A stretch of 64,000 nucleotides of DNA from Rickettsiales bacterium (GCA_038131165.1 JAYPOZ010000004.1:15493-79492); one strand, 5' to 3'. Shown: positions 1 through 21,676, counted from the stretch's first letter. Numbers and translations are program-made. The notes: generated from the sequence alone by a model not told the origin.

Positions 1-1
1 C

Positions 2-559
2 CTGCTGCGCGAGAAGGAAAAAGGCAAGCTGCGCCATCTCGGTCTCACGGAGACGCCGCCCAACGACCCGGCGGGCGAGATGCTGATCCGCGCCTCGCAG
101 GACCCGGTCTGGGAAGTCGTCATGCTCGGCTTTCACATGATGCATCAGGTGGCGCGCCGGAACTGTTTTCCGGGCACGATGAAACACGGCATCGGCACGG
201 TCCTGATGTTCGTGGTGCGCAGCATTTTCAGCATTCCGGGCCGCCTGGAGGAGACCCTGGCCGCGCTCGCCGCCGAAAAGAAAGTGCCCGACTGGCTCGG
301 CACGTCCGACAATCCGCTCGGCTTTCTGATCCATGAAGGCGGGGCGTCGAGCGTCATCGATGCGGCTTACCGGTATGCCCGCCACGAGCCGGGCGCGGAC
401 GTGGTCCTCTTCGGCAGCGGTGTCGAGGAGCACATCCGCACCAATATCGGCTCCATCCTGCGGCCGCCGCTGCCGGCCGAGGACGTGGCCCGGCTCAAGG
501 AGCTTTTCGGGCATCTCGAAGGCGTCGGCCTGGACCTGCCGGAGCCGCGCAAGACCTGA
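2..559 (+). CDS. aldo/keto reductase family protein, C-terminal part (5' end outside window)
   Basis: Frame 2 is open from the window edge to TGA 557-559; the listed ORF 80-559 is only its first in-window ATG. The translation (LLREKEKGKLRHLGLTE...VVLFGSGVEEHIRTNIGSI...) reads like the C-terminal half of an AKR. Family call is by eye. Confidence 0.6.
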   Translation: MLREKEKGKLRHLGLTETPPNDPAGEMLIRASQDPVWEVVMLGFHMMHQVARRNCFPGTMKHGIGTVLMFVVRSIFSIPGRLEETLAALAAEKKVPDWLGTSDNPLGFLIHEGGASSVIDAAYRYARHEPGADVVLFGSGVEEHIRTNIGSILRPPLPAEDVARLKELFGHLEGVGLDLPEPRKT

Positions 560-595
560 CCGTCGAACCGCTGATTGGAACAAGGAAACCGTCCC

Positions 596-1012
596 GTGGA
601 ACACACCCGCATTCGCCGCTTCAATACCAAGGACACTTATCCGGAACAAAACCTCGACAACGATCTGTGCCAGGCGGTTGCCGCGCGCGGGACGATGGTC
701 TTTCTGCGCGGCCAGTGCCCGCAGGAACTGGACGGCGGCAAGAATCTCGACAGCCACGATCCGGTCGAACAGACCCACAAGGTCATGCAGAACATCGCCC
801 AGCTGATCGAGGAAGCGGGCGGCCGGATGGAGCATTTGGTCAAGGTCGTCGTCTACATCACCGACATCCGCCACCGCGAGGCGGTCTACCGGACGATGGG
901 GCAATACATCAAAGGCGTCTTCCCGGTCTCCACCGGATTGGTCGTCCAAGCCCTGGCGCGGCCGGAATGGCTCGTCGAGATCGACGCGACCGCCGTCATC
1001 CCTGACAAGTGA
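596..1012 (+). CDS. RidA/YjgF/L-PSP family protein
   Basis: ORF 575-1012 has a RidA-like C-terminal core (VVVYITDIRHREAVY...STGLVVQALARPEWLVEIDATAV). GTG 596 is preferred because AAGGA lies about 9 nt upstream; TTG 575 is the alternative start. Confidence 0.7.
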   Translation: MEHTRIRRFNTKDTYPEQNLDNDLCQAVAARGTMVFLRGQCPQELDGGKNLDSHDPVEQTHKVMQNIAQLIEEAGGRMEHLVKVVVYITDIRHREAVYRTMGQYIKGVFPVSTGLVVQALARPEWLVEIDATAVIPDK

Positions 1013-1025
1013 TCGGAGCGCCGCC

Positions 1026-1700
1026 ATGACCTTTTCCATCGTTGCCCGCTGCGCCGAGACCGGCATGTTCGGTGTCGCGGTCTCGTCCTCCTCCCCCGCC
1101 GTGGCAGCCCGCTGCGCCTATGCCGAGGCGGGCGTGGGCGCGGTCTCCAGCCAGAACGTCACCGACCCGACGCTGGGCCCCGGCGCGCTTGCCCTGATGA
1201 AGGAGGGGGCGAGTGCCGCGGAGGCCGTCGCGGCGCTGCGCGACTCCCGCCCGCATATGACCTACCGCCAGGTCCTGGCGGTCGACGCCAAGGGCGGCAC
1301 GGCGATCCATTCCGGCTCCCACGCGCTCGGCATTTGCGCCGAGGCGTCGCGCCCGAACGTCGCCTGTGCCGGCAACATGCTGGCCGGCCCGGATGTGGCG
1401 CAGGCCATGGTCGATGCCTTCGAAGCCACCGCCGGCCCGCTCGGCGACCGCCTGATCGCGGTGATGCGGGCCGCCATCAAGGCGGGCGGCGAGGCCGGGC
1501 CGGTGCACTCCGCCGGGCTGAAACTGGTGCGCGAGGTGGCCTGGCCGGTCGCCGACCTCCGCGTCGACTGGACGGAGGACGACCCGATCGAGGCCCTGGC
1601 CGCGGTGTGGGAGATCTACCGCCCGCAGCTCGACGATTACGTGACCCGGGCGCTCGACCCGTCCGCGGCGCCGAGCTACGGCGTGCCGGGCGACGAATAG
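1026..1700 (+). CDS. DUF1028 family protein (Ntn-hydrolase-like)
   Basis: 224-aa ORF starting MTFSIVARCAETGMFGVAVSSSSPAVAARC, the typical DUF1028 N-terminus. It is tightly packed after the RidA gene. Confidence 0.65.
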   Translation: MTFSIVARCAETGMFGVAVSSSSPAVAARCAYAEAGVGAVSSQNVTDPTLGPGALALMKEGASAAEAVAALRDSRPHMTYRQVLAVDAKGGTAIHSGSHALGICAEASRPNVACAGNMLAGPDVAQAMVDAFEATAGPLGDRLIAVMRAAIKAGGEAGPVHSAGLKLVREVAWPVADLRVDWTEDDPIEALAAVWEIYRPQLDDYVTRALDPSAAPSYGVPGDE

Positions 1701-1711
1701 AAACAATATTT

Positions 1712-1731
1712 CGATAATTTTAGAATTATCG
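1712..1731. promoter_or_regulatory. candidate operator: 20-bp near-perfect palindrome CGATAATTTTAGAATTATCG
   Basis: 9 of 10 base pairs are self-complementary. It sits in an AT-rich gap about 35 nt upstream of the ArsR-family ATG (1767). Confidence 0.45.
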
Positions 1732-1766
1732 TTGCGTTTGGTTTCTTATCCGTCTATAACCGCCGC

Positions 1767-2087
1767 ATGAACGAAGAAACCGCTGCATCGCGCATGGAAG
1801 CCCTCGGGCATTCGACGCGTCTTTCGATCTACCGCCTGCTGGTGAAGGCCGGCGACGACGGCCTGATCGTGGGCGACATCCAGAAGGCGCTCGACGTGCC
1901 GGCCTCGACGCTCTCGCATCATCTGGCGAAATTGGCCCGGGTCGGGCTGGTGAGCCAGGGGCGGCGCGGGCGGGAGATTTATTGCAGCGTGGATTACGAC
2001 GAAATGCGGGCGCTGATCGGCTTCCTCACCGAGGAATGCTGCACCGGGGTCTGCCTGGAACAGAGCGACGCGCAGGACGCGGCTTAG
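1767..2087 (+). CDS. ArsR/SmtB family transcriptional regulator
   Basis: 106 aa with a winged-HTH core (LGHSTRLSIYRLL...VPASTLSHHLAKLARVGLV) and a C-terminal Cys cluster EECCTGVC. Confidence 0.85.
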   Translation: MNEETAASRMEALGHSTRLSIYRLLVKAGDDGLIVGDIQKALDVPASTLSHHLAKLARVGLVSQGRRGREIYCSVDYDEMRALIGFLTEECCTGVCLEQSDAQDAA

Positions 2088-2117
2088 CGTTTTGGCCTAT
2101 AGCGACGGAGAGCGACA

Positions 2118-3155
2118 ATGTCGGATATTTCCCTCCAATTGAAGAATGCCGCCGGATTCGGCCGCCGGATCGAGCGCGCCTGGCTGGTGGTGCTGGCGAT
2201 CTTCGTGGGCCTCGCCCTTTTCGTGCCGGATCAGGCCGGGGCCAGCCTTGGCTTCGTCGCGGACGCGCTGACGGAGATGGCGCCGTTCCTGGCGCTCGCC
2301 ATCGGTGTTGCCGCCTATGCGCGCGCCAGCGGCGCCGACGGCCTGATCGCCAAGGCATTCCAGGGCCGGATGTCGGCGATGATCGTCTTCGCCGCGCTCT
2401 TCGGTGCCATGTCGCCGTTCTGCTCCTGCGGCGTGATCCCCTTGATCGCGGCTCTGCTTGCGATGGGCGTGCCGGTGCCGGCGGTGATGGCCTTTTGGCT
2501 CGCCTCGCCGCTGATGGATCCCTCGATGTTCGTGCTCACGACGGGAACGCTCGGCCTCGAATTCGCGGTGGCGAAAACCCTGGCGGCGGTCGGCATCGGC
2601 CTGATGGGCGGGTTTACGACCGCGGCCCTGATGGCGCGGGGCGCCTTCGCCGATCCGCTGCGCGAGGGCATCGGGGGCGGCTGTTGCGGCGGGCCCAAGC
2701 TCGATGCCCAGGCCCGCGTCGCTTGGACGTTCTGGCGGGAAGACGAGCGGCGACGGAAATTCTACAAGGAATCCGGCACGACCGCATTGTTCCTGCTGAA
2801 ATGGCTGACTCTCGCCTTCCTGCTGGAAAGCCTGATGCTGGCCTATATCTCGGCCGACCAGATCGCGCCGGTGCTGGGCCAGGGCAATGCCTGGGCAATT
2901 CCGCTCGCCACGCTCGTCGGCGTGCCCGCCTATCTCAACGGCTATGCCGCGCTGCCGCTGGTCTCGGGCCTGATCGAGATGGGCACCGCGCCGGGCGCCG
3001 GAATGGCCTTCCTGGTCGCGGGCGGGGTCACCAGCCTGCCCGCCGCCATCGCCGTCTACGCGCTGGTCCGAAAGCCGGTTTTCGCGTGGTATATCGCGCT
3101 CTCGCTGATTGGCGGGCTGCTCGCCGGCGGGCTGTTCCAGCTCTACGCCGGCTGA
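2118..3155 (+). CDS. COG0701-type permease (ArsP-like putative organoarsenical/metalloid exporter)
   Basis: 345-aa polytopic membrane protein with a PFCSCGVIPL motif. GGAG lies 7 nt upstream of the ATG, and the gene follows arsR by 30 nt. Confidence 0.7.
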   Translation: MSDISLQLKNAAGFGRRIERAWLVVLAIFVGLALFVPDQAGASLGFVADALTEMAPFLALAIGVAAYARASGADGLIAKAFQGRMSAMIVFAALFGAMSPFCSCGVIPLIAALLAMGVPVPAVMAFWLASPLMDPSMFVLTTGTLGLEFAVAKTLAAVGIGLMGGFTTAALMARGAFADPLREGIGGGCCGGPKLDAQARVAWTFWREDERRRKFYKESGTTALFLLKWLTLAFLLESLMLAYISADQIAPVLGQGNAWAIPLATLVGVPAYLNGYAALPLVSGLIEMGTAPGAGMAFLVAGGVTSLPAAIAVYALVRKPVFAWYIALSLIGGLLAGGLFQLYAG

Positions 3156-4129: not shown

Positions 4130-5275
4130 CTAGCCCGAGAGCTTCATCCGCTTGGCGATGATCTGCAGCATGATCTCGTTCGAGCCGCCGCCGATGGCCG
4201 CCACCTTCATGTCGCGGTAGGTGCGGCTGATGCGGTTCTCGTGCATGAAACCCTGGCCGCCCCAGAAACGCAGGCATTCGCCCGGAATCCATTCCGCGAG
4301 CCGGCCCATCTTGTACTTCGCCATCGACGCCAGGGTCGTGATGTCCTCGCCGGCCACGTATTTCTCGGTGGCGATGTGCAGCATCGCGCGCAGCGCCTCG
4401 ACCTCGGTCTGCATCTCGGCGATCCGAAAGGCGACGAACTGATTGTCGAGCACGGCGCGCCCGAACGCCTGGCGGTCGCTTGTATACTCGACGGTGGTGT
4501 CGATCGCGTCCTGCAGAACGCCGAGCGAGCGCGCCACCACATAAAGGCGCTCCTCCTGGAACTGCTCCATCTGGTAGATGAAACCGCGGCCTTCCTCGCC
4601 GATCAGATGGTGCGCGGGCACACGCACGTCGTCGAAGAAAATCTGCGCCGTGTCCGAGGAATGCAGGCCCAACTTTTCCAGTTTGTGGCGGGTGACGCCC
4701 TTCGCGTTCAGCGGCACGACGATCAGCGATTTGTTGCGGTGCGGGCCGTTCTCCTCGCCGGTGTTCACCAGCATGCACATCCAGTCGGCCTGGATGCCGT
4801 TCGAAATCCACATCTTCTGGCCGTTGATGACGTAATCGCCGCCGTCGCGCCGCGCGACGCTCTTCACATTGGCGACGTCGGAGCCGGAGCCGACCTCGGA
4901 GACGCCGATGCAACCGACGAGATCGCCCGCGAAGGTCGGCGCCAGCCACTCGGCCCGCAAGTCGTCGCCGCCGTAGCGCGCGAGGGCCGGCACGCACATA
5001 TTGGTCTGCACGCCGATGGCGGTGGAGACGCCGTAGGCGTGGATCGCGCCCATCTCCTCGGCGCAGGCGACTTCGTAGGAATAGTCCAGATCGAGGCCGC
5101 CGTAGTCGCTCGGCCGCGAGATGCCGATCAGCCCGGCATCGCCGAGCAGTTTCATGACGTGATGGGCGGGAAACTGGCCGTCGCGCTCCCACTCGTCGAC
5201 ATGGGGATTGATGTCTTCGTCGACAATCCGCCGCGCGGTGCGGCGCAGCGCATCGTGCTCGTGGGTCCACTGCAT
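4130..5275 (-). CDS. acyl-CoA dehydrogenase family protein
   Basis: ACAD-like along its whole length (GVSEVGSGSDVANVKSVARRDGGDYVINGQKMWISNG; C-terminal IGGGSNEIMLQIIAKRM). Start moved to ATG 5275 (MQWTHEHD), preceded by GGGAGAG, giving 381 aa. The ORF track extends to 5365. Confidence 0.85.
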   Translation of the reverse strand: MQWTHEHDALRRTARRIVDEDINPHVDEWERDGQFPAHHVMKLLGDAGLIGISRPSDYGGLDLDYSYEVACAEEMGAIHAYGVSTAIGVQTNMCVPALARYGGDDLRAEWLAPTFAGDLVGCIGVSEVGSGSDVANVKSVARRDGGDYVINGQKMWISNGIQADWMCMLVNTGEENGPHRNKSLIVVPLNAKGVTRHKLEKLGLHSSDTAQIFFDDVRVPAHHLIGEEGRGFIYQMEQFQEERLYVVARSLGVLQDAIDTTVEYTSDRQAFGRAVLDNQFVAFRIAEMQTEVEALRAMLHIATEKYVAGEDITTLASMAKYKMGRLAEWIPGECLRFWGGQGFMHENRISRTYRDMKVAAIGGGSNEIMLQIIAKRMKLSG

Positions 5276-9115: not shown

Positions 9116-9159
9116 GCCTCCGCCAGCCCTCGCCCTCCCATCCCCGCTTGCGCGCGGAC

Positions 9160-9252
9160 GGGCCCCTCCCTCTCCCGCAGGCGGGAGAGGGGTTTGAAAA
9201 TCCCGGCGGCGCGACTCCCTCTCCCGCAAGCGGGAGAGGGTCGGGGTGAGGG
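9160..9252. repeat. two tandem REP-like GC-rich hairpins (CCCTCTCCCGC-nn-GCGGGAGAGGG) plus a TCGGGGTGAGGG tail
   Basis: Perfect 11-bp stems at 9168-9178/9181-9191 and 9217-9227/9230-9240. The unit resembles the widespread alphaproteobacterial intergenic element that yields 'PLPQAGEGRGEG'-type pseudo-ORFs. Confidence 0.8.
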
Positions 9253-12649: not shown

Positions 12650-12678
12650 CGCAATCCCTCGACCCTTTCGACTGTGGT

Positions 12679-13503
12679 CTAGTCCGTCATCGGCGTGATC
12701 TTGTCGCCCTTTACCAGGAAGCGCCCGGAACCGTAGCCCGCCGCCTCCGGAATGGTCATGACGCGGTGCTCGTCGCCCTCGATGAATTGGGTCTTCGGCA
12801 GCACCGTCACGATCTCGCGCGCATTGGCTTCCGCGATCGCCGCATCGACGGAATCGCTGCGCTCCAGCATTTCCAGGTTGAGGCGCGTCGGGAACATGAC
12901 GTTGCGGTCGCCGCTCTCGCCGGCGGCAATCGCGCGCGGCGGCCGGACCCAGACGGAATGCACGGATTCGCCGCCGTCGTGGACCGCATGCTGGCGGCGC
13001 GGCATGCGCGCCAGGAAGAAATGCGTGTCAAAACGCTTCGGCCGTCCCTCGGGCGTGATCCAATGCGCGTAATAGGCCAACCGGTCGCAGCACAGGATCA
13101 AATCTTCCTTCTGAATGATCTCTTCCCAGCCGACATCGCCGGCATTCAGCGCGACGTGGTATTGGTCGTAGAACGCCGCCGCCTCGTCGCCTTCGAGAAC
13201 GGTCTCGACGCTGCTGTGGCGCGCCAGCACGACGCCGCATTCCTCGAAAGTCTCGCGGACCGCTGCGATCCGAAGCGCCGCCGCCCCGGCGTCGAGCCCT
13301 TCGATACCGTCGCAGCGCTCGAGCAACGTGGCGTCCGAATCTTCCGGGTCGACCTTGCCGCCCGGAAAGACCAGCGCCGAGGCGAAATGCATGCGGTTGC
13401 TGCGCTCGACCATGAAGACCTCGAGGCCTTCATCGCCGTCGCGAATGAGGAGAACGGTGGCGGCGGGGACCGGCGTGACCGGCGTCTTGTTTTGATTGGG
13501 CAT
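12679..13503 (-). CDS. NUDIX hydrolase
   Basis: 274 aa with a Nudix box (GGKVDPED...AAVRETFEECGVVL). Confidence 0.8.
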   Translation of the reverse strand: MPNQNKTPVTPVPAATVLLIRDGDEGLEVFMVERSNRMHFASALVFPGGKVDPEDSDATLLERCDGIEGLDAGAAALRIAAVRETFEECGVVLARHSSVETVLEGDEAAAFYDQYHVALNAGDVGWEEIIQKEDLILCCDRLAYYAHWITPEGRPKRFDTHFFLARMPRRQHAVHDGGESVHSVWVRPPRAIAAGESGDRNVMFPTRLNLEMLERSDSVDAAIAEANAREIVTVLPKTQFIEGDEHRVMTIPEAAGYGSGRFLVKGDKITPMTD

Positions 13504-13657
13504 GAAACCTCTCTGAAAGCTCCTCTAAAGCTAAGCCTCCCTCCCGGCGATGCAAGAGCGCAGTATGCCCGGCCTGTCCCGCCGGTTTCGGCTGTCGAAG
13601 CGGCTGCGGCGTGCTATGTCTCTCGTCAAACCCCACAGCTTTACGCGAGGCAACAGC

Positions 13658-14437
13658 ATGCCCAACGAATCCGCGCCGATGGCGCACGAAAGCCGCACCA
13701 CGAGCGAGACCATCGAGACCTTGCTGCAGCGCCGCAGCATTCGGAAATACAGCGATGCGCCGGTGACCGATGCGCAGGTCGATGCCATCCTGCGCGCCGC
13801 CTTCCGCGCGCCGACCTCGTCGAATATTCAGTCCTACAGCGTGATCGTGGTGCGCGACCCGGAGATCAAACAGCAGCTCTCGGTGCCGACCGGCAACCAG
13901 AAGCACATCGTCGATTGCCCGGTGTTCCTTGCCTTCTGCGCCGATTTGACGCGCCTTCAGGTCGTCCTGGAGCGCCACGGCCACACCCTCGAAGACAACA
14001 ACCTCGAGGTCGGTCTGGTCTCCTCGATCGACGCCTCGCTGGTCGGCATGTCGGCTTATGTCGCCGCCGATTCGCTCGGTATTCAGGGCGTGATGATTGG
14101 GGCGGTGCGCAACGATGCGGTCAAGATCGCCGAGATTCTGGGCCTGCCGAAATACGTCTATTGCGTCTTCGGCATGTGCCTCGGCTATCCGGCGGAGGCG
14201 CCGCAGCAGAAACCGCGCATGGACCAGGACCTGGTGGTCCACCGGGAGCGCTACGATCCGGCGAAAAGCGCCGCCGCCGTCGATGCCTACGACCCCGAAC
14301 TCCGGGCCCATTACGAAGCCATCGGCAAGGCGACGACGCCCGATTCGTGGAGCCACGACATGGACAAGAAATTCCACCCGCAGCTGCGCGAGAAACTCCG
14401 CGCGCAGCTCAAGGTCCAGGGCTTCGATTTCCGCTAG
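13658..14437 (+). CDS. NfsA-like NADPH-dependent nitroreductase family oxidoreductase
   Basis: Contains LLQRRSIRKYSDAPV and the SSNIQSYSVIVV motif. Start at ATG 13658 (MPNESAP), inside ORF 13550-14437. Confidence 0.8.
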   Translation: MPNESAPMAHESRTTSETIETLLQRRSIRKYSDAPVTDAQVDAILRAAFRAPTSSNIQSYSVIVVRDPEIKQQLSVPTGNQKHIVDCPVFLAFCADLTRLQVVLERHGHTLEDNNLEVGLVSSIDASLVGMSAYVAADSLGIQGVMIGAVRNDAVKIAEILGLPKYVYCVFGMCLGYPAEAPQQKPRMDQDLVVHRERYDPAKSAAAVDAYDPELRAHYEAIGKATTPDSWSHDMDKKFHPQLREKLRAQLKVQGFDFR

Positions 14438-14475
14438 TCCGCGCGGCGGCGGCGCCAGGGCCCGGTGACGACGGT

Positions 14476-14576
14476 TCAGGCCGCCAGATCGCCGCTGCGG
14501 CCGGATTTGGCTTCGAGGAAGCGTTTCACCTGCGGGTTTTGGGCATCCTTCAATTTCGGCGTGGCGCCCTGCCAGC
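14476..14576 (-). pseudogene. orphan 3'-terminal remnant (last 33 codons plus stop) of an MlaF-like ABC ATPase gene
   Basis: 14478-14576 matches 17549-17647 at 97 of 99 nt (my count). The frame ends in TGA (14476-14478), has no start codon, and is closed upstream by TAG at 14653-14655. Confidence 0.8.
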
Positions 14577-14838
14577 GCGACCTCGGTATCGCGCATAAGG
14601 AACCCGTCGGGGCGCAGGCCGCGCATGCCGGATGCAATGCGCAGATGATTGCCTAGGTTCCTTGATCTCTCGCAACCAATTCTAACTTAGATACTCGGTA
14701 TCGTTCGTCGGGGCAGGCCACATCGAAACCGGATGAGCCGGATTCTCCGTCAACGAACACGCTCTGATGCCCCAAACGTTTTGACATCGAACGCGTGCCA
14801 TTGGGCGCTTGAAATTGGCCGCTATGGAGATTGAACCA

Positions 14839-15324
14839 ATGTCCGAGGCTCCTTCCCTGACGGTAAACGGCCACGTGCGGGCATTGCCGAACGATGTCGC
14901 GCCGAATACGCCGCTGCTGCATATCCTCCGCAATATGCTGGGCCTAACAGGCACCCGCTTTGGCTGTGGGCTGGAACAATGCGGCGCGTGCATGGTGCTG
15001 GTCGATGGCCAGCCGGTGCAGTCCTGCACCGCTGCATTGGACTCGGTCGTGGGCAAACGGATCACGACGATTGAGGGCCTGACAGGGGGCGACGGCGAAC
15101 GGCACCCGCTGCAACAAGCTTTTCTGGATGAGCAGGCAGGGCAATGCGGCTATTGCCTCTCCGGCATTCTGATTTCGGCGAAAGCGTTGCTGGATCGGAA
15201 CCCGAACCCGACTCGAAGCGAGATCGCCGCGGCCCTGGATGACAATCTCTGCCGCTGCGGCTCGCATGTTCGCATTCTGAAAGCCGTGGAGCGGGCAGCG
15301 GAAACCCTGCGGGCCGGGGGTTAA
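14839..15324 (+). CDS. (2Fe-2S)-binding small subunit of a molybdenum hydroxylase (IorA-like)
   Basis: Two 2Fe-2S motifs are present: CGLEQCGACMV and QCGYCLSG...CRCGSH. ATG 14839 is preceded by GGAGA 7 nt upstream; the ORF track starts at TTG 14809. Confidence 0.85.
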   Translation: MSEAPSLTVNGHVRALPNDVAPNTPLLHILRNMLGLTGTRFGCGLEQCGACMVLVDGQPVQSCTAALDSVVGKRITTIEGLTGGDGERHPLQQAFLDEQAGQCGYCLSGILISAKALLDRNPNPTRSEIAAALDDNLCRCGSHVRILKAVERAAETLRAGG

Positions 15325-15327
15325 CCA

Positions 15328-17472
15328 ATGAACGATACCGTCAAACTGCCCGCGAGCCTGACCACCAATCCGCGACTGGACCGTTGGATAAAATTCGAGG
15401 ACGACCGCACTGTGCGTGTCGCCTCCGGCAAAGTGGAAATCGGCCAGGGGATCGCCACCGCACTGACGCAGATTGCGGCGGAGGAACTCGACTTGCCGTT
15501 GGAGCGCGTAACGCTCCTATCCGGCAGTACGGAATTTGGACCGGACGAGCGTTATACATCATCCAGTCTGTCGGTCATGGTCTCCGGCGCTTCGATCCGG
15601 CTGGTCTGTGCCGAAGTGCGTGCCTTGCTGGCGGACCAGGCGGCATTGCGCCTGAACTGCTCGCCCGACGACTTGGCGGTTGTGGACGGCGCTTTCGTAA
15701 AAGACGGCGCGACAACCGGCTTGGATTACTGGGACATTGCCCCGGTCCTCGATCTGAGCCGGGCGCCGACCGGATCCGCCAAGCCAAAGTCGCCGGGGAC
15801 CTACCGTTTTGTCGGCCGGGACGTGCCGCGGGCGGACCTGCCGGACAAGGTCACGGGCGCCGGCGAGACCTATCTGCACGACATTTACCCGGCAGGCGTC
15901 CTGCACGCCCGCACGCTGCGCCAGCCCGGCCCTCGCGCGACGTTGGCGGCGCTGGACGAGGATGCCGTCCGACGCGCCAGCGGCGATGCGGCATTGCGCG
16001 TCGTGCGGCGCGCCAACTTCGTCGCGTTTATCAGTGCCGACGAGCGCAAGGCCGAAGCGGCGGCGGTCTATGCCGAGGAGAACGCGAAATGGTCCGACCT
16101 GCGCGACTATCGCGGCAGCGAGCAGGAAGGTTCATGGCTGGTCGGCCGGCCGGCCGAACGCCGCGAATTCGGCGCTCCCAAATCCGATACCGAGGGTGCT
16201 GCGGATGTGGTGGAGGCGACCTATACCCGGCCCTACATCGCCCATGCGTCGATGGGGCCGTCGGTGGCGATCGCGCAATACGATGGCGAGACCATGACGG
16301 TCTGGTCGCATGGGCAGGGCATGCATCCGCTGCGCCGGAATATCGCGGACATGCTGGGGCTCGATCCGGACAAGGTGGTTTGCCATCACCGCCACGGCCC
16401 CGGCTGCTATGGCCACAACGGTGCGGACGACGCGGCGGCGGACGCCGCCATCGTCGCTCTGGCGCTGCGGGGCGAAACCGTCCGGCTGCAATGGCGGCGC
16501 GAGGAGGAATTTGCCTACGAACCCGTGAGTCCGGCCATGTCGGTAACGGTCAAGGTCGCCTTGGATGCCGCCGGCAACCCGATGGACTGGACCCAGGAAA
16601 TCTGGAGCGCCACCCATGTACAGCGTCCGGGCTCCGGCAGCGGTTATCTGCTCGCGAGCGAAGCGCTCGAAAACCCGCCGCCGCCGGTCGCGGTTACCGA
16701 TCCGCCGGAGGAAAGCGGCGGCGGTAGCACCCGCAACGCGGTCCCGCTCTATCGGATACCGGCTCACCGCATCGAACATCATCTGGTAACGGAAGGTCCG
16801 GTCAGGACCTCGGCCCTGCGGGGGCTCGGCGCGCCGACCAACGTTTTCGCCATGGAATGCATGATGGACGAGTTGGCGGCCCGCGCCGGCAAGGACCCGC
16901 TTGAATACCGCCTGGCGCTGCTGGACGATCCGCGCGCCCGCGCCGTGCTGGAGCGGACGGCGGCAATGGCCGATTGGACGCGGCGCGGCCCCGGTGGCCC
17001 AAGTGGTGACGGCGCCGGCAAGGGGCTGGGCATCGCCTTTGCGCGTTACAAGAACATGGCGGCGTACTCCGCGGTTGTCGTCGCCGTGACGGTGGCGGAC
17101 GAGGTGCGGCTGGACCATATCTGGAGCGCCAGCGATGCCGGCCTGGTGATCAACCCGGACGGTGCGCGCAACCAACTCGAGGGCGGGATCGTTCAGGCGG
17201 CCAGTTTCGCCCTCAAAGAACAGGTGAAGCTCGCGGGCGACGGCATCGCATCGCGGGACTGGGACGCGTACCCCATCCTGCGCTTTAGCGAAGTGCCGCC
17301 TGTCGACGTGGAATTGATCGGATCGCCGGACGATCCGTCGCTGGGCATGGGCGAGTGTACGGTGGGGCCGACCTGTGCCGCTATCGGCAACGCCGTATCG
17401 CATGCGCTGGGCCGGCGGCTGTACGACATGCCGCTGAACCGGGAACGGATCATGACGGCATTGCTCGCGTAG
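15328..17472 (+). CDS. molybdopterin-binding subunit of the xanthine dehydrogenase/aldehyde oxidase family (IorB-like)
   Basis: 714 aa beginning 3 nt after the small subunit's stop. It has the family-typical N-terminus (VEIGQGIATALTQIAAEEL) and length. Confidence 0.85.
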   Translation: MNDTVKLPASLTTNPRLDRWIKFEDDRTVRVASGKVEIGQGIATALTQIAAEELDLPLERVTLLSGSTEFGPDERYTSSSLSVMVSGASIRLVCAEVRALLADQAALRLNCSPDDLAVVDGAFVKDGATTGLDYWDIAPVLDLSRAPTGSAKPKSPGTYRFVGRDVPRADLPDKVTGAGETYLHDIYPAGVLHARTLRQPGPRATLAALDEDAVRRASGDAALRVVRRANFVAFISADERKAEAAAVYAEENAKWSDLRDYRGSEQEGSWLVGRPAERREFGAPKSDTEGAADVVEATYTRPYIAHASMGPSVAIAQYDGETMTVWSHGQGMHPLRRNIADMLGLDPDKVVCHHRHGPGCYGHNGADDAAADAAIVALALRGETVRLQWRREEEFAYEPVSPAMSVTVKVALDAAGNPMDWTQEIWSATHVQRPGSGSGYLLASEALENPPPPVAVTDPPEESGGGSTRNAVPLYRIPAHRIEHHLVTEGPVRTSALRGLGAPTNVFAMECMMDELAARAGKDPLEYRLALLDDPRARAVLERTAAMADWTRRGPGGPSGDGAGKGLGIAFARYKNMAAYSAVVVAVTVADEVRLDHIWSASDAGLVINPDGARNQLEGGIVQAASFALKEQVKLAGDGIASRDWDAYPILRFSEVPPVDVELIGSPDDPSLGMGECTVGPTCAAIGNAVSHALGRRLYDMPLNRERIMTALLA

Positions 17473-17546
17473 ACGGGCTTCGCCGCCTCTCCTAACGGGA
17501 AAACCGGAAAAGCGATCTTTGCGGTTCAATATATCCGTGAAAGGCT

Positions 17547-18299
17547 CTAGGCCGCCAGATCGCCGCTGCGGCCGGATTTGGCTTCGAGGAAGCGTTTCAC
17601 CTGCGGGTTTTGGGCATCCTTCAATTCCGACGTGGCGCCCTGCCAGCCGATCCGGCCCTCGTGCAGCATCGCCATCTTGTTCGAGATGCGCTGCGCGCCG
17701 GTCATGTCGCTGGTGATGGTAAAGCAGGTGGCGCCCAGTTCGCGCACGCTCTTCAGGATCATGTCGTAGATGATGTTGCACATGATCGGATCCAGGCCGG
17801 CGGTCGGCTCGTCCAGGAACAGCACTTCCGGATTGGTCGCGATCGCGCGCGCCAGGCCGACGCGCTTCTGCATGCCGCCCGACAGCTCGGCCGGATAAAG
17901 CGCGCCCACTTCCGGGCCCAGATTGACGACGGAGAGCTTGTCGGCCGCCAGTTCGCGCGCCTGGGCTTCGTTCATCGTGCCGGCCTGCAGCTGTTTGAAG
18001 GCGATGTTCTGCCAGACCGGCATGCCGTCGAAGAGGCCGCCGTATTGGAACAGCATGCCGAAACGGTCGTCGAAGGCGCGGCGCTCGGCGGTGCGCATCC
18101 GGCGCACTTCCTGGCCGTCGATCTCGACGGTGCCGCCGTCCGGACGCACGAGGCCGATCATGGTCTTGAGCAGCAGCGACTTGCCGCTGCCGGAGCCGCC
18201 GATCAGCACCATCGAATCGCCGCGCTCCAGCTCCAGGTCGATTCCCTTCAGAACCGCCAGGTCGCCGAAACTCTTGGTGACGCCGCTCAGCTTGATCAT
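17547..18299 (-). CDS. ABC transporter ATP-binding protein, MlaF/Ttg2A-like (no cognate permease nearby)
   Basis: Has Walker A (GGSGSGKS), Q-loop (LFQYGGLF), signature (LSGGMQKRVGLARA) and Walker B (VLFLDEPTAGLD). The H-loop position reads ITSDM rather than the usual xxHD. Confidence 0.85.
   Translation of the reverse strand: MIKLSGVTKSFGDLAVLKGIDLELERGDSMVLIGGSGSGKSLLLKTMIGLVRPDGGTVEIDGQEVRRMRTAERRAFDDRFGMLFQYGGLFDGMPVWQNIAFKQLQAGTMNEAQARELAADKLSVVNLGPEVGALYPAELSGGMQKRVGLARAIATNPEVLFLDEPTAGLDPIMCNIIYDMILKSVRELGATCFTITSDMTGAQRISNKMAMLHEGRIGWQGATSELKDAQNPQVKRFLEAKSGRSGDLAA
17549..17647. repeat. 99-bp direct repeat, copy B (inside the 3' end of the ABC ATPase gene); copy A is at 14478-14576
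   Basis: The copies sit at a constant offset of 3071 nt. There are 78 identical nt followed by 21 nt with 2 mismatches, after which similarity ends abruptly. Confidence 0.9.
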
Positions 18300-18356
18300 C
18301 GTACCCCCGATCGCTCGCCTGTCCTTAAATAGCGGAAATTCGCCGCCGCGCCAATC

Positions 18357-18740
18357 TCAGGCGGGAATGTGGGTGGTCGTCACCTCGGCGAGCGTCTTGC
18401 CCCCCGCGCCGGTCACCAAGGTGCGGATCACCGTCACCCGCCGCCCACAGCGCACCACCCGGGACTCGGCCCGCAGCACGCCGTCCGACTGATTGCCGAG
18501 CATCGTCGAATGCAGGTCGATCAGCACCATGAAGGCGCCCGGATTGGGGCCGTCGCCATTGGCCCGGTTGGCCATCACGGTGGCGCAATTGTCGGCGAGG
18601 CTGAGGATCGTCCCGCTGTGGACGACGCCGGTCGGAGTCTTGTGCGCATCCCGCACCTCGAGCCGCGCCGAGGCGCGGTCCGCCGTGTCCTCCAGCATCT
18701 CGATCCCGAGCAGCTCGGCCAGCGGGCTCTGTTCGGTCAT
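18357..18740 (-). CDS. PaaI-family hotdog-fold thioesterase
   Basis: 127 aa with the hotdog-fold PaaI-like pattern (VVHSGTILSLADNCATV...RVVRCGRRVTV). Confidence 0.75.
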   Translation of the reverse strand: MTEQSPLAELLGIEMLEDTADRASARLEVRDAHKTPTGVVHSGTILSLADNCATVMANRANGDGPNPGAFMVLIDLHSTMLGNQSDGVLRAESRVVRCGRRVTVIRTLVTGAGGKTLAEVTTTHIPA

Positions 18741-18750
18741 GCGGTCTCCG

Positions 18751-19827
18751 TCAGTTGCCGAGCATGAAGGGCGCTCCCGATTCCTCGGCCACCTCGCGCA
18801 CCTCGTTGACCAGGGTATCGGTCATCGGAATGCCGCTCGCCACCCGAATCTTGCGGGCCTCGTATTCCGGGTCGCCCGGCACCAGCACCGGCTGCGCCGG
18901 GTCGAGCGGCGGCGTCTCCCGCATCCAGTCCATCAAGGCGTCCATCTGGGCCTCGAACGCGCCCTCTTCGCGGAAGGCGTCCGGATCGATGGCGAGGCAG
19001 AAATGCCCGATGTTCATGGTGTCGCCCTTCTGGCGGGTCATCACGTCGACGGCGCCCGTCGCCGAGCCCGACAGCACGCTGCACAGCACCTCGACCACCA
19101 GGCCGAGCCCGTAGCCCTTGTGCGAGCCCAGCTCGCGGGTGCCGCCGACCGGCGAGAGTTTCTTCGGCACCGCGTTCAGCGCCGCCACGGGATCGGTCGT
19201 CGGGTTGCCGTCCTGGTCCGCCGCCCAGCCGAGCGGGATCGGCTTGCCGGCGCGGCGCGCGATGTTGAGCTTGCCGACCGCGACCGTGCTGGTCGCCATG
19301 TCGAGGGAGAAATGCTCGTTCTTGATGCCCGGCGCCGCGACCGCGATGGGATTGGTGCTGAAGCGCGGCTCCCGCGCGAAGGTCGGCAGCACGGCGGGCT
19401 GGCTCGAGCCGGTCATGCAGATGCCGATCATGCCCCGGTCGGCCGCCATCGTGGAATAGACTCCGGCGGCGCCGTAATGGTTGGAGCGGCGCACCGTGAC
19501 CACGCCGACGCCGAACTGCTTGGCCTTGTCGCAGGCCATCTCCATCGCCTTTGTCGTGGAATAATGCCCGAGCGCGTTCCCCGCATCGAGCAGCGCGGTG
19601 GCGGCGAAGTCGCGCACCGTCGTCAGCTCGCCCTTGGGATCGACGATCCCCTGCTTGCGGCGCAGATTGTAGGTCGGCAGCATGCCCGCGCCATGCGAGT
19701 CGATGCCGCGCAGGTCGGCTTCCAGCATGTTGCGGACGGTCACCTCGATCACCTCCTCGCGCATGCCCCAGGCGCGGTAGATTTCGGTGATCTGCTTGCT
19801 CAATGTCTCGGCGGATACGGTAAGAAT
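18751..19827 (-). CDS. Ldh_2 family (malate/L-lactate/ureidoglycolate dehydrogenase-type) oxidoreductase
   Basis: Family-like throughout (DLRGIDSHGAGMLPTY...RRSNHYGAAGVY...GGTRELGSHKGYGL). The start is uncertain. It is either ATT 19827, with GGGAGG 5 nt upstream and an N-terminus of ILTVSAETL, or the only upstream ATG at 19929. The ORF track extends further. Confidence 0.75.
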   Translation of the reverse strand: MLTVSAETLSKQITEIYRAWGMREEVIEVTVRNMLEADLRGIDSHGAGMLPTYNLRRKQGIVDPKGELTTVRDFAATALLDAGNALGHYSTTKAMEMACDKAKQFGVGVVTVRRSNHYGAAGVYSTMAADRGMIGICMTGSSQPAVLPTFAREPRFSTNPIAVAAPGIKNEHFSLDMATSTVAVGKLNIARRAGKPIPLGWAADQDGNPTTDPVAALNAVPKKLSPVGGTRELGSHKGYGLGLVVEVLCSVLSGSATGAVDVMTRQKGDTMNIGHFCLAIDPDAFREEGAFEAQMDALMDWMRETPPLDPAQPVLVPGDPEYEARKIRVASGIPMTDTLVNEVREVAEESGAPFMLGN

Positions 19828-21417: not shown

Positions 21418-21468
21418 CCGAGCCGCGCGGTGGCGTCGATCATATTGCCCCCTGAAAGGAACCCGCCC

Positions 21469-21628
21469 ATGAGCAACCCCGCCTTTGAATTCGAGCATGT
21501 GCATATCATCGGCGCGGACCCAAAGGCGGCGGAGGAGTGGTACGCCGGGCCGCCTGTTGTGCTATGTCTCCGCTCCGGACAATGTCAGCATCGAGCTGAT
21601 CCAGCAGGAACCCGCGGACACCCATTGA
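21469..21628 (+). pseudogene. VOC (glyoxalase/dioxygenase) family gene relic with an internal deletion and frame change
   Basis: A VOC-like N-terminus (MSNPAFEFEHVHIIGADPKAAEEWY) lies in one frame. A VOC-like C-terminus (YVSAPDNVSIELIQQEPADTH*) lies about 20 codons later in another frame. The middle of a roughly 125-aa protein is missing. Confidence 0.5.
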
Positions 21629-21676
21629 GGGCGGGAGCGCGAGCGTGGCCGCGCGGCAGGAGAGAATGAGGCCGGA

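Follow-up and report, generated by a model that had tools for sequence, protein, structure and literature searches.

The 64,000-nt stretch of DNA analysed here (‘the window’; positions are counted from its first letter) derives from an uncultured marine alphaproteobacterium, deposited as Rickettsiales bacterium under GCA_038131165.1 (JAYPOZ010000004.1:15493-79492), and contains a two-gene molybdenum hydroxylase operon, here called iorAB, which is bracketed by two copies of a 99-bp direct repeat; one of these copies forms the 3′ end of an intact ABC ATPase gene. Throughout, we denote the nitroreductase gene on the left flank as X, the repeat as R (R_A and R_B for copy A and copy B), the iorAB block as Y and the remainder of the ATPase gene as Z. 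From left to right, the features of the locus are as follows (coordinates, strand, description):

13658..14437, plus strand: nitroreductase gene (X, left flank; Pfam PF00881), converging on the ATPase gene in the ancestral, empty layout
14478..14576, minus strand: copy A (R_A), an orphan copy of the last 33 ATPase codons, decaying; the old stop codon TGA (14476-14478) and the old downstream flank are still attached to it
14577..14664, no strand: left filler, 88 nt, no source found; homology to L112 (closest relative) begins only at ~14660-14665
14665..14838, plus strand: native non-coding region upstream of iorAB, aligning with the region upstream of iorA in L112
14839..15324, plus strand: iorA-like small 2Fe-2S subunit of a xanthine-dehydrogenase-family molybdenum hydroxylase (Pfam Fer2 and Fer2_2)
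15328..17472, plus strand: iorB-like large molybdopterin cofactor-binding subunit, full length at 714 amino acids (aa; Pfam MoCoBD_1/MoCoBD_2)
17473..17548, no strand: right spacer, of which 17486-17548 (63 nt) is filler, no source found
17549..17647, minus strand: copy B (R_B), functional as the ATPase gene’s 3′ end; matches R of the empty contigs L003 and L005 at 99/99 positions
17547..18299, minus strand: ABC ATPase gene (Z plus R_B; Pfam ABC_tran), 250 aa, the target of the insertion; stop codon TAG, last 33 codons equal to copy B

A repeat search aligns the two copies over 99 nt at a spacing of 3071 nt, with 97/99 positions identical; the first 78 nt match perfectly and both mismatches, each of which changes the encoded protein (S to P and E to K), lie within the final 21 nt. 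R is not a generic repeat: a 78-nt probe tolerating up to three mismatches finds two sites in the window, copies A and B themselves, and none in 100 shuffles, and a window-wide scan returns the pair as the only direct repeat of at least 35 nt with gene-scale spacing in the 64 kb. The reading frame of copy A is shut upstream by an in-frame TAG (14653-14655), the 2,972 bp between the copies hold two genes only (the 2Fe-2S subunit and the molybdenum cofactor (MoCo)-binding subunit), and the segment 14641-14700 has a G+C content of 43.3%. On all of these points the initial annotation, itself made from the sequence alone, was sound: it had described the repeat with its 78 perfect nucleotides and two non-synonymous mismatches, copy B as the end of an intact gene stopping at TAG, copy A as a closed orphan ending in TGA, a content of nothing but iorA/iorB-like genes, and a low-GC stretch of 43%; our frame analysis, gene calls and Pfam assignments agree. 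At the junction with copy B, the new stop codon of the ATPase gene is composed of a T common to both copies and an AG supplied by the last two bases of the filler, the old TGA having remained with copy A.

Two further observations were made in the window. Its other repeat of at least 35 nt is a local pair of 37-nt elements (9155-9191 and 9204-9240; CTCCCTCTCCCGCAGGCGGGAGAGGG), tandem, G+C-rich, hairpin-forming and intergenic, with the appearance of a repetitive extragenic palindromic (REP) element or a terminator. In the annotation of GCA_038146885.1, a spurious open reading frame (ORF) of 398 aa without a Pfam match (window 13430-14626, minus strand) starts at an ATG in the 88-nt filler, crosses copy A out of frame and runs antisense to the nitroreductase gene, the real call for which it replaces.

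Filled and empty alleles in the population

All of our data are metagenome contigs or contigs of metagenome-assembled genomes (MAGs). Contigs near-identical to the window (96.8-100% identity) were gathered by exact-protein look-up from NCBI MAGs, JGI, ENA and Logan assemblies. Eleven contigs are filled (the window, L001, L002, L004, L006, L010, L011, L013, L113, L114 and L118), and five of the same species are empty (L003, L005, L108, L116 and L121), each of the latter reading nitroreductase gene, 38 nt, TGA-R and the remaining ATPase sequence, iorAB being absent. Of the MAGs, GCA_038146885.1 is filled and GCA_038126955.1 empty. The empty site recurs in three sister lineages, represented by L109 (88% ATPase identity), L099/L100 (86%) and L101-103 (79%), in which the ATPase and nitroreductase genes converge within ~9-12 nt. 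The ATPase orthologues form a clear series of 70-89% identity against a paralogue background of ~57%; a scan of the genome collection with the ATPase protein gave paralogues at ~54% identity, and no orthologous locus, among the matches listed. As conspecific empties and sisters alike place the nitroreductase and ATPase genes side by side, this adjacency is ancestral and iorAB was inserted into it. The initial annotation had taken the repeats for the trace of an insertion into the ATPase gene’s 3′ end, the gene end being duplicated and the frame regenerated, and had suggested looking in related genomes for a nitroreductase gene directly abutting the ATPase gene; the five conspecific contigs and three sister lineages supply exactly this.

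Distances computed on the flanks (884 + 1025 nt outside the repeat) define a crown group, made up of clades I and II at 0.2-0.5% from each other, and a basal clade III (L108, L116 and L121) lying 1.0-1.9% away; the sister lineages are ~20% away. All filled alleles fall within clades I and II, the empties L003 and L005 are also members of the crown group, and clade III is empty throughout. Two bases set the clade III empties apart, a private T to C change at R position 56 and, ten nucleotides into Z, a G, neither of which is present in any filled copy; private SNPs (single-nucleotide polymorphisms) on flanks diverged by 1-2% mark the empty allele as an independently evolving haplotype, and not as an assembler shortcut.

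The repeat itself records where the duplicated sequence came from. Copy B is identical at all 99 positions to R of the crown empties L003 and L005, and the clade III empties differ at one private SNP; R in L098, the nearest sister and the sole one compared at the DNA level, is 83% identical. The 99 bp were therefore duplicated from resident DNA, as opposed to having arrived as a homologue borne by an element. Since that time the two copies have fared differently. Copy A differs from strain to strain (T79 and G82 in the window; G82 in the L001 type; T83 and G90 in the L002 type; G90 in L113; A6 and G82 in L011), as befits a fragment that is free of selection and drifting, and the insertion itself is older than the separation of the crown clades. 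Copy B has hardly changed: a few substitutions are seen in L011 and in L113/L114/L118, one of them protein-altering. Across strains, the exact identity between copies A and B spans 78-81 nt. In nine ATPase orthologues the C-terminus contains the invariant residues W219, G221, T223, F237, L238 and S242-S245, a degree of conservation that explains why only an insertion leaving the gene end intact would persist. An apparent second event at the 3′ end of an orthologue, the 381-aa P0006, was set aside, its extension being an N-terminal fusion call with the thioesterase gene.

The two empty members of the crown group deserve separate treatment. L003 and L005 read exactly X-R-Z, the deletion product expected from recombination between copies A and B. 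T56C is absent from them, the base ten nucleotides into Z is C instead of G, and 14451/14460 read G/G; with crown-type bases both inside and beside R, they did not arise by import of the clade III allele sampled here. Precise loss of the block through exchange between the two copies would be the simplest reading of these alleles. Exchange between strains is evident in the filled contigs, the window having flanks of clade I type (L001) and leader/spacer alleles (14676, 14696 and 17494-17495) of clade II type (L002); such a mosaic indicates recombination between strains within the inserted block, and supports the passage of alleles from one strain to another.

Other changes in gene content are seen at or near the locus. 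In the filled contig L118 (JGI 3300064344), a 109-nt deletion near L118 5572 (equivalent to window 17010-17118), with almost no microhomology at its ends, splits iorB into ORFs of 616 aa and 59 aa; the inserted operon is already being lost in some lineages. A glyoxalase gene at window 21468-21630 is internally deleted, with ~280 nt gone between short CGGG-type repeats and its N- and C-terminal parts left out of frame; in clade III it is intact at 145 aa (L116:10764-11201 and L121:5899-6336). A TauD-family dioxygenase gene stands between the NUDIX and flavoprotein genes in sister lineages (L099, L101 and a 28-kb JGI contig); these two genes adjoin in the window’s species (window 12650-12678).

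In L098, a sister at 89% identity, a different cargo fills the interval from the ATPase stop codon to the nitroreductase gene: three genes, encoding a DAO-family oxidoreductase, a 499-aa protein and RidA, bracketed by a 91-nt direct repeat of 81% identity (1180-1270 and 4558-4648) that starts directly after the ATPase stop. A third copy of this repeat lies elsewhere in that genome, after an unrelated gene (L097:3939-4019), and the repeat is absent from the window’s species; we therefore regard it as a dispersed intergenic repeat distinct from R. This second cargo is a hint that insertions are tolerated at, or drawn to, the convergent junction; a site-specific system common to the two is not indicated.

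The inserted block and its target gene

The block has the composition of a two-subunit molybdenum hydroxylase, with a small 2Fe-2S and a large MoCo subunit and no gene for a subunit binding flavin adenine dinucleotide (FAD). The ‘iorAB-like’ label of the initial annotation thus fits at the level of this family, though it does not extend to a specific enzyme: in the search for a substrate assignment, all NCBIfam equivalogs scored far below their cut-offs (168 against 995 bits, for example). Homologues of iorB at 79-87% identity encode proteins of 700-714 aa, an identity spread that resembles that of the ATPase orthologues. In relatives, the operon sits at other loci: between an Oxidored_FMN gene and NicX-ZnuABC in L106 and L107; between a pentapeptide and a hydrolase gene in L105; and ahead of another Mo-hydroxylase gene in L112. 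None of these four loci is beside this ATPase gene and none has flanking repeats. In a collection of 15 billion proteins, all iorB sequences of at least 90% identity share the single genomic context seen in the window, from which we conclude that the block is not circulating among species; its source would be either a relocation within the lineage or an unsampled close relative.

DNA homology to L112, the closest relative, covers window 14660-17485, and homology to relatives stops at 17465-17485. As it sets in at ~14660, the region 14665-14838 is the operon’s own upstream region, carried in with the genes; the leader flagged in the initial annotation is accordingly not wholly foreign, and what stays unexplained is a left-hand 88 nt and a right-hand 63 nt. 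The upstream region shares long near-identical blocks with L112 (e.g. TATCGTTCGTnGGGGCAGGCCAnATC) and may have a regulatory role in operons of this family; neither an Rfam family nor a sigma-70 consensus matches it. Over 14300-17800, searches for Rfam families, promoters and terminators came back empty, leaving a riboswitch or terminator reading of the leader or spacer without support. For the two fillers, blastn against the fetched loci, the rest of the window and plasmids gave no source, tblastn of their six-frame peptides against all fetched loci gave none either, and the 88-nt filler has no match among viral contigs.

Base composition does not set the operon apart. The G+C content at third codon positions (GC3) is 0.71-0.72 for iorA, depending on the start codon, and 0.80 for iorB, with immediate neighbours at 0.84-0.93; these values lie inside the spread of the window (median 0.79, standard deviation 0.08) and are not taken as evidence of foreign origin, a reading that we have dropped.

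With regard to the target, the description ‘MlaF-like’ proved too loose: the ATPase scores 140 bits against the MlaF equivalog NF008809, the cut-off of which is 441, and its neighbours are an Ldh_2 and a 4HBT thioesterase gene, with no permease. This orphan ATPase (window 17547-19803; also L097/L098, L099 and L109) follows the Ldh_2-family dehydrogenase and 4HBT thioesterase genes, and no permease or substrate-binding gene is adjacent to it at any of the clade’s loci examined. Its C-terminal tail (KSGRSG...) is clade-specific and conserved.

Mechanism of the insertion and its consequences

The block contains no mobility genes. Pfam finds no integrase or transposase within it, only the Fer2/Fer2_2 and MoCoBD proteins, and terminal inverted repeats are at chance level, the best end-to-end inverted match scoring 20 where shuffles average 15.7 and reach 24; the initial annotation had flagged both absences correctly. 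Folding of R, spacer and filler gives z-scores from +0.97 to -1.11 relative to shuffles, with no hairpin and no attC-like palindrome. The 64-kb window holds no tRNA gene, and no plasmid or viral carrier of the block was found. Our survey of the site, which comprised the 16 conspecific contigs and five sister-lineage loci, turned up no integrase-bearing element and no genes or remnants from integrative and conjugative elements (ICEs) or integrative and mobilizable elements (IMEs) at the junction. Two familiar vehicles can be rejected on these grounds: an integron gene cassette, because the boundaries lack an attC-type fold, and a transposon or insertion sequence (IS), which would share with our locus the duplication of target sequence on both sides of the insert but for which there is no transposase, no terminal inverted repeat above chance and a duplication of 99 bp; the target duplications of transposons and insertion sequences are typically a few base pairs.

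Our preferred account, which we hold to be probable, is a single insertion event achieved without a dedicated recombinase, leaving a long target duplication, and followed by homologous recombination between the repeats. The crown group’s ancestor would have had convergent ABC ATPase and nitroreductase genes with 38 nt between them. A stretch of 2,972 bp (88 nt of filler, the native iorAB upstream region, iorA, iorB and 63 nt of filler) would then have been copied in, such that the last 99 bp of the resident ATPase gene came to lie on either side of it. As to the route, we tentatively put forward a replicative template switch as the likeliest single one, though at less than even odds: a replication or repair fork would exit the ATPase gene at its stop codon, copy the iorAB segment from elsewhere and re-enter 99 nt upstream of the point of exit, in the manner of microhomology-mediated break-induced replication (MMBIR) or fork stalling and template switching (FoSTeS). 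A switch of this kind would yield X-R-insert-R-Z in one step and tolerate filler at the junctions. The allele would have survived through the ATPase keeping its complete, constrained C-terminus, with a stop codon recreated as TAG; copy A has drifted neutrally since.

Insertions attributed to FoSTeS/MMBIR are alike in being copied-in segments flanked by an exit-to-re-entry duplication, recombinase-free and one-off, with filler possible at the junctions; ours differs in that the donor locus was not found and the diagnostic junction microhomologies are not shown. Template-switch insertions are mostly documented in eukaryotic copy-number variants and in experimental E. coli amplification; the models are reportedly those of Lee/Lupski (2007) and Hastings (2009), and Slack (2006) is said to have dealt with E. 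coli.

The later history of the locus would belong to a better-known process. Copies A and B, perfectly identical over 78-81 nt, constitute a substrate for RecA-type homologous recombination; exchange between them would delete the block precisely, giving rise to the crown empties L003 and L005, and could also generate tandem or circular forms, while the repeats and the flanking homology would let presence and absence alleles pass between strains. RecA-dependent deletion and amplification between short repeats offers a close parallel, with such identity flanking a 3-kb segment and a precise deletion in the crown group, yet it covers the fate of the repeats and not their origin. A possible trace of the tandem or circular product is L015 (ENA ERZ27313075 k141_966259), in which positions 1-3008 are permuted, reading iorB-spacer-R-leader-iorA, and are 63 nt short of the 3071-nt unit; its sample yielded no full-length copy of the query ATPase gene. 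We give equal weight to L015 being the junction of an excised circle or tandem and to its being a low-coverage mis-join: at low coverage, a de Bruijn graph lacking the X to R and R to Z edges would join Y-R-Y spuriously.

Saying this, several points tell against our account. Apparent microhomology at the junctions amounts to only 1-3 nt; with the source of the fillers not found, junction microhomology cannot be examined and the template switch is not demonstrated. It is possible that a recombinase acting in trans is encoded elsewhere in the genome, beyond the 64 kb of the window, and the other cargo found at this junction in the 89% sister hints that the site may not be a purely random target. 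Instead of secondary deletions, the crown empties could represent an ancestral polymorphism that was retained, and L015, the sole trace of a tandem or circular product, may be an artefact of assembly.

A first rival is site-specific integration; the initial annotation had likened the architecture to that of islands flanked by attachment (att) sites, noting itself that an integrase is missing. Such islands and integrative elements target the 3′ ends of tRNA, tmRNA (transfer-messenger RNA) or protein-coding genes, and the architecture seen here is exactly of their type: direct repeats derived from the target’s 3′ end, the gene end regenerated by the element-side copy, an orphan native end beside the old flank, and a precise, unoccupied site in relatives. 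The stop codon on the element side (TAG) differs from the native TGA, and the iorB-R-leader junction of L015 resembles the attP of an excised circle. On this reading the block would be a decayed element or satellite resembling a cis-mobilizable element (CIME), with an attP that included the 99-bp ATPase end and a recombinase supplied in trans, R_A and R_B being attL and attR. A CIME is a decayed ICE or IME that by definition no longer has the genes for integration and transfer and has kept attL and attR (PMC5704250). As the closest named category for the block, it is apt descriptively, with att-like flanks, neither integration nor transfer genes and, in principle, the possibility of mobilisation in trans; what we see, however, is a metabolic operon of an ordinary kind that retains its own upstream region, plus 151 nt of filler, with no ICE/IME remnants, no accretion and no sign of ICE/IME descent. 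Unlike att-flanked islands, moreover, the block has no integrase or excisionase gene, or remnant of a recombinase gene, in or beside it (the 151 nt being all of the insert that is unaccounted for), no cognate element at this position among the loci surveyed, and no second copy of the module or recurrence of an att specificity elsewhere; it occurs in one species and one context, its repeat is a copy of resident DNA—ordinary conserved coding sequence without special structure—and the cargo of L098 is bounded by the unrelated dispersed repeat and not by R. We consider it likely, with some assurance, that the insertion was not site-specific, and this particular alternative very unlikely.

Insertion without a recombinase could also have come about by homology-facilitated illegitimate recombination, in which incoming DNA carrying iorAB and a homologous ATPase segment is joined at one end by homology and illegitimately at the other, or in two steps, a first insertion cutting the ATPase gene short by 99 nt, with its end restored afterwards by a wild-type fragment. 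Both give X-R-insert-R-Z, the strongly conserved ATPase C-terminus makes selection for an intact gene end plausible, and the SNP mosaics speak of frequent recombination in the population; even so, we judge this pair of routes unlikely. R_B and the adjacent ATPase sequence are of resident type (99/99) and not diverged in the manner of L098 (83%), which speaks against a foreign donor for the homology-facilitated version and obliges its donor to be a conspecific that already had iorAB beside the ATPase—a circular argument. No genome was found with iorAB beside this ATPase but without copy A, and the two-step version needs an additional event. Tandem duplication followed by internal deletion was rejected, since more steps are needed and no intermediate was seen. 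That the repeat, the empty alleles or both result from metagenome mis-joins is scarcely credible. All of our contigs are, admittedly, of metagenomic origin, the 78-81 nt of exact identity in R exceed the smaller k-mers of common assemblers, and L015, short by 63 nt and from a sample without a complete ATPase gene, fits a low-coverage mis-join. The 11 filled and five empty contigs, however, stem from different samples, pipelines and assemblers, so that 10 more independent contigs repeat the structure first seen in the window; the substitutions in copy A are strain-specific, the clade III empties have a private SNP in R that the filled copies lack, and the sisters are empty too. For the repeat and the empty site, an artefact, against which the initial annotation had cautioned, is effectively refuted.

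A more speculative view of the later history, which strikes us as improbable, would treat the block as a plug-in cassette that needs no recombinase, with the 99-bp duplication serving as portable homology by which host recombination would loop iorAB out and back or between strains, and the junction as a recurrent landing pad. Were it true, either state would leave the ATPase intact, L015 would be a circle junction, and the landing pad would have captured a different repeat-bounded cargo (DAO-499aa-RidA) in the sister species represented by L098.

Returning to the preferred account, a single recombinase-free insertion, the locus is a strain-variable islet bounded by direct repeats, produced by illegitimate insertion and now open to homologous recombination. 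As such it is of a known kind, and reveals no new mechanism or system, although the target duplication is unusually long and the gene end neatly regenerated. Its value is that of a clean, population-level natural case of a metabolic operon moved to a new chromosomal site without mobile-element machinery, with three states preserved side by side: before (the empties and sisters), after (the filled alleles) and aftermath (a decaying copy A, precise losses and one broken iorB). That an att-like architecture can arise from a one-off event is a reason for caution with island-prediction tools that make use of such repeats; and, once in place, the repeats make the gene content of the site reversible through homologous recombination.

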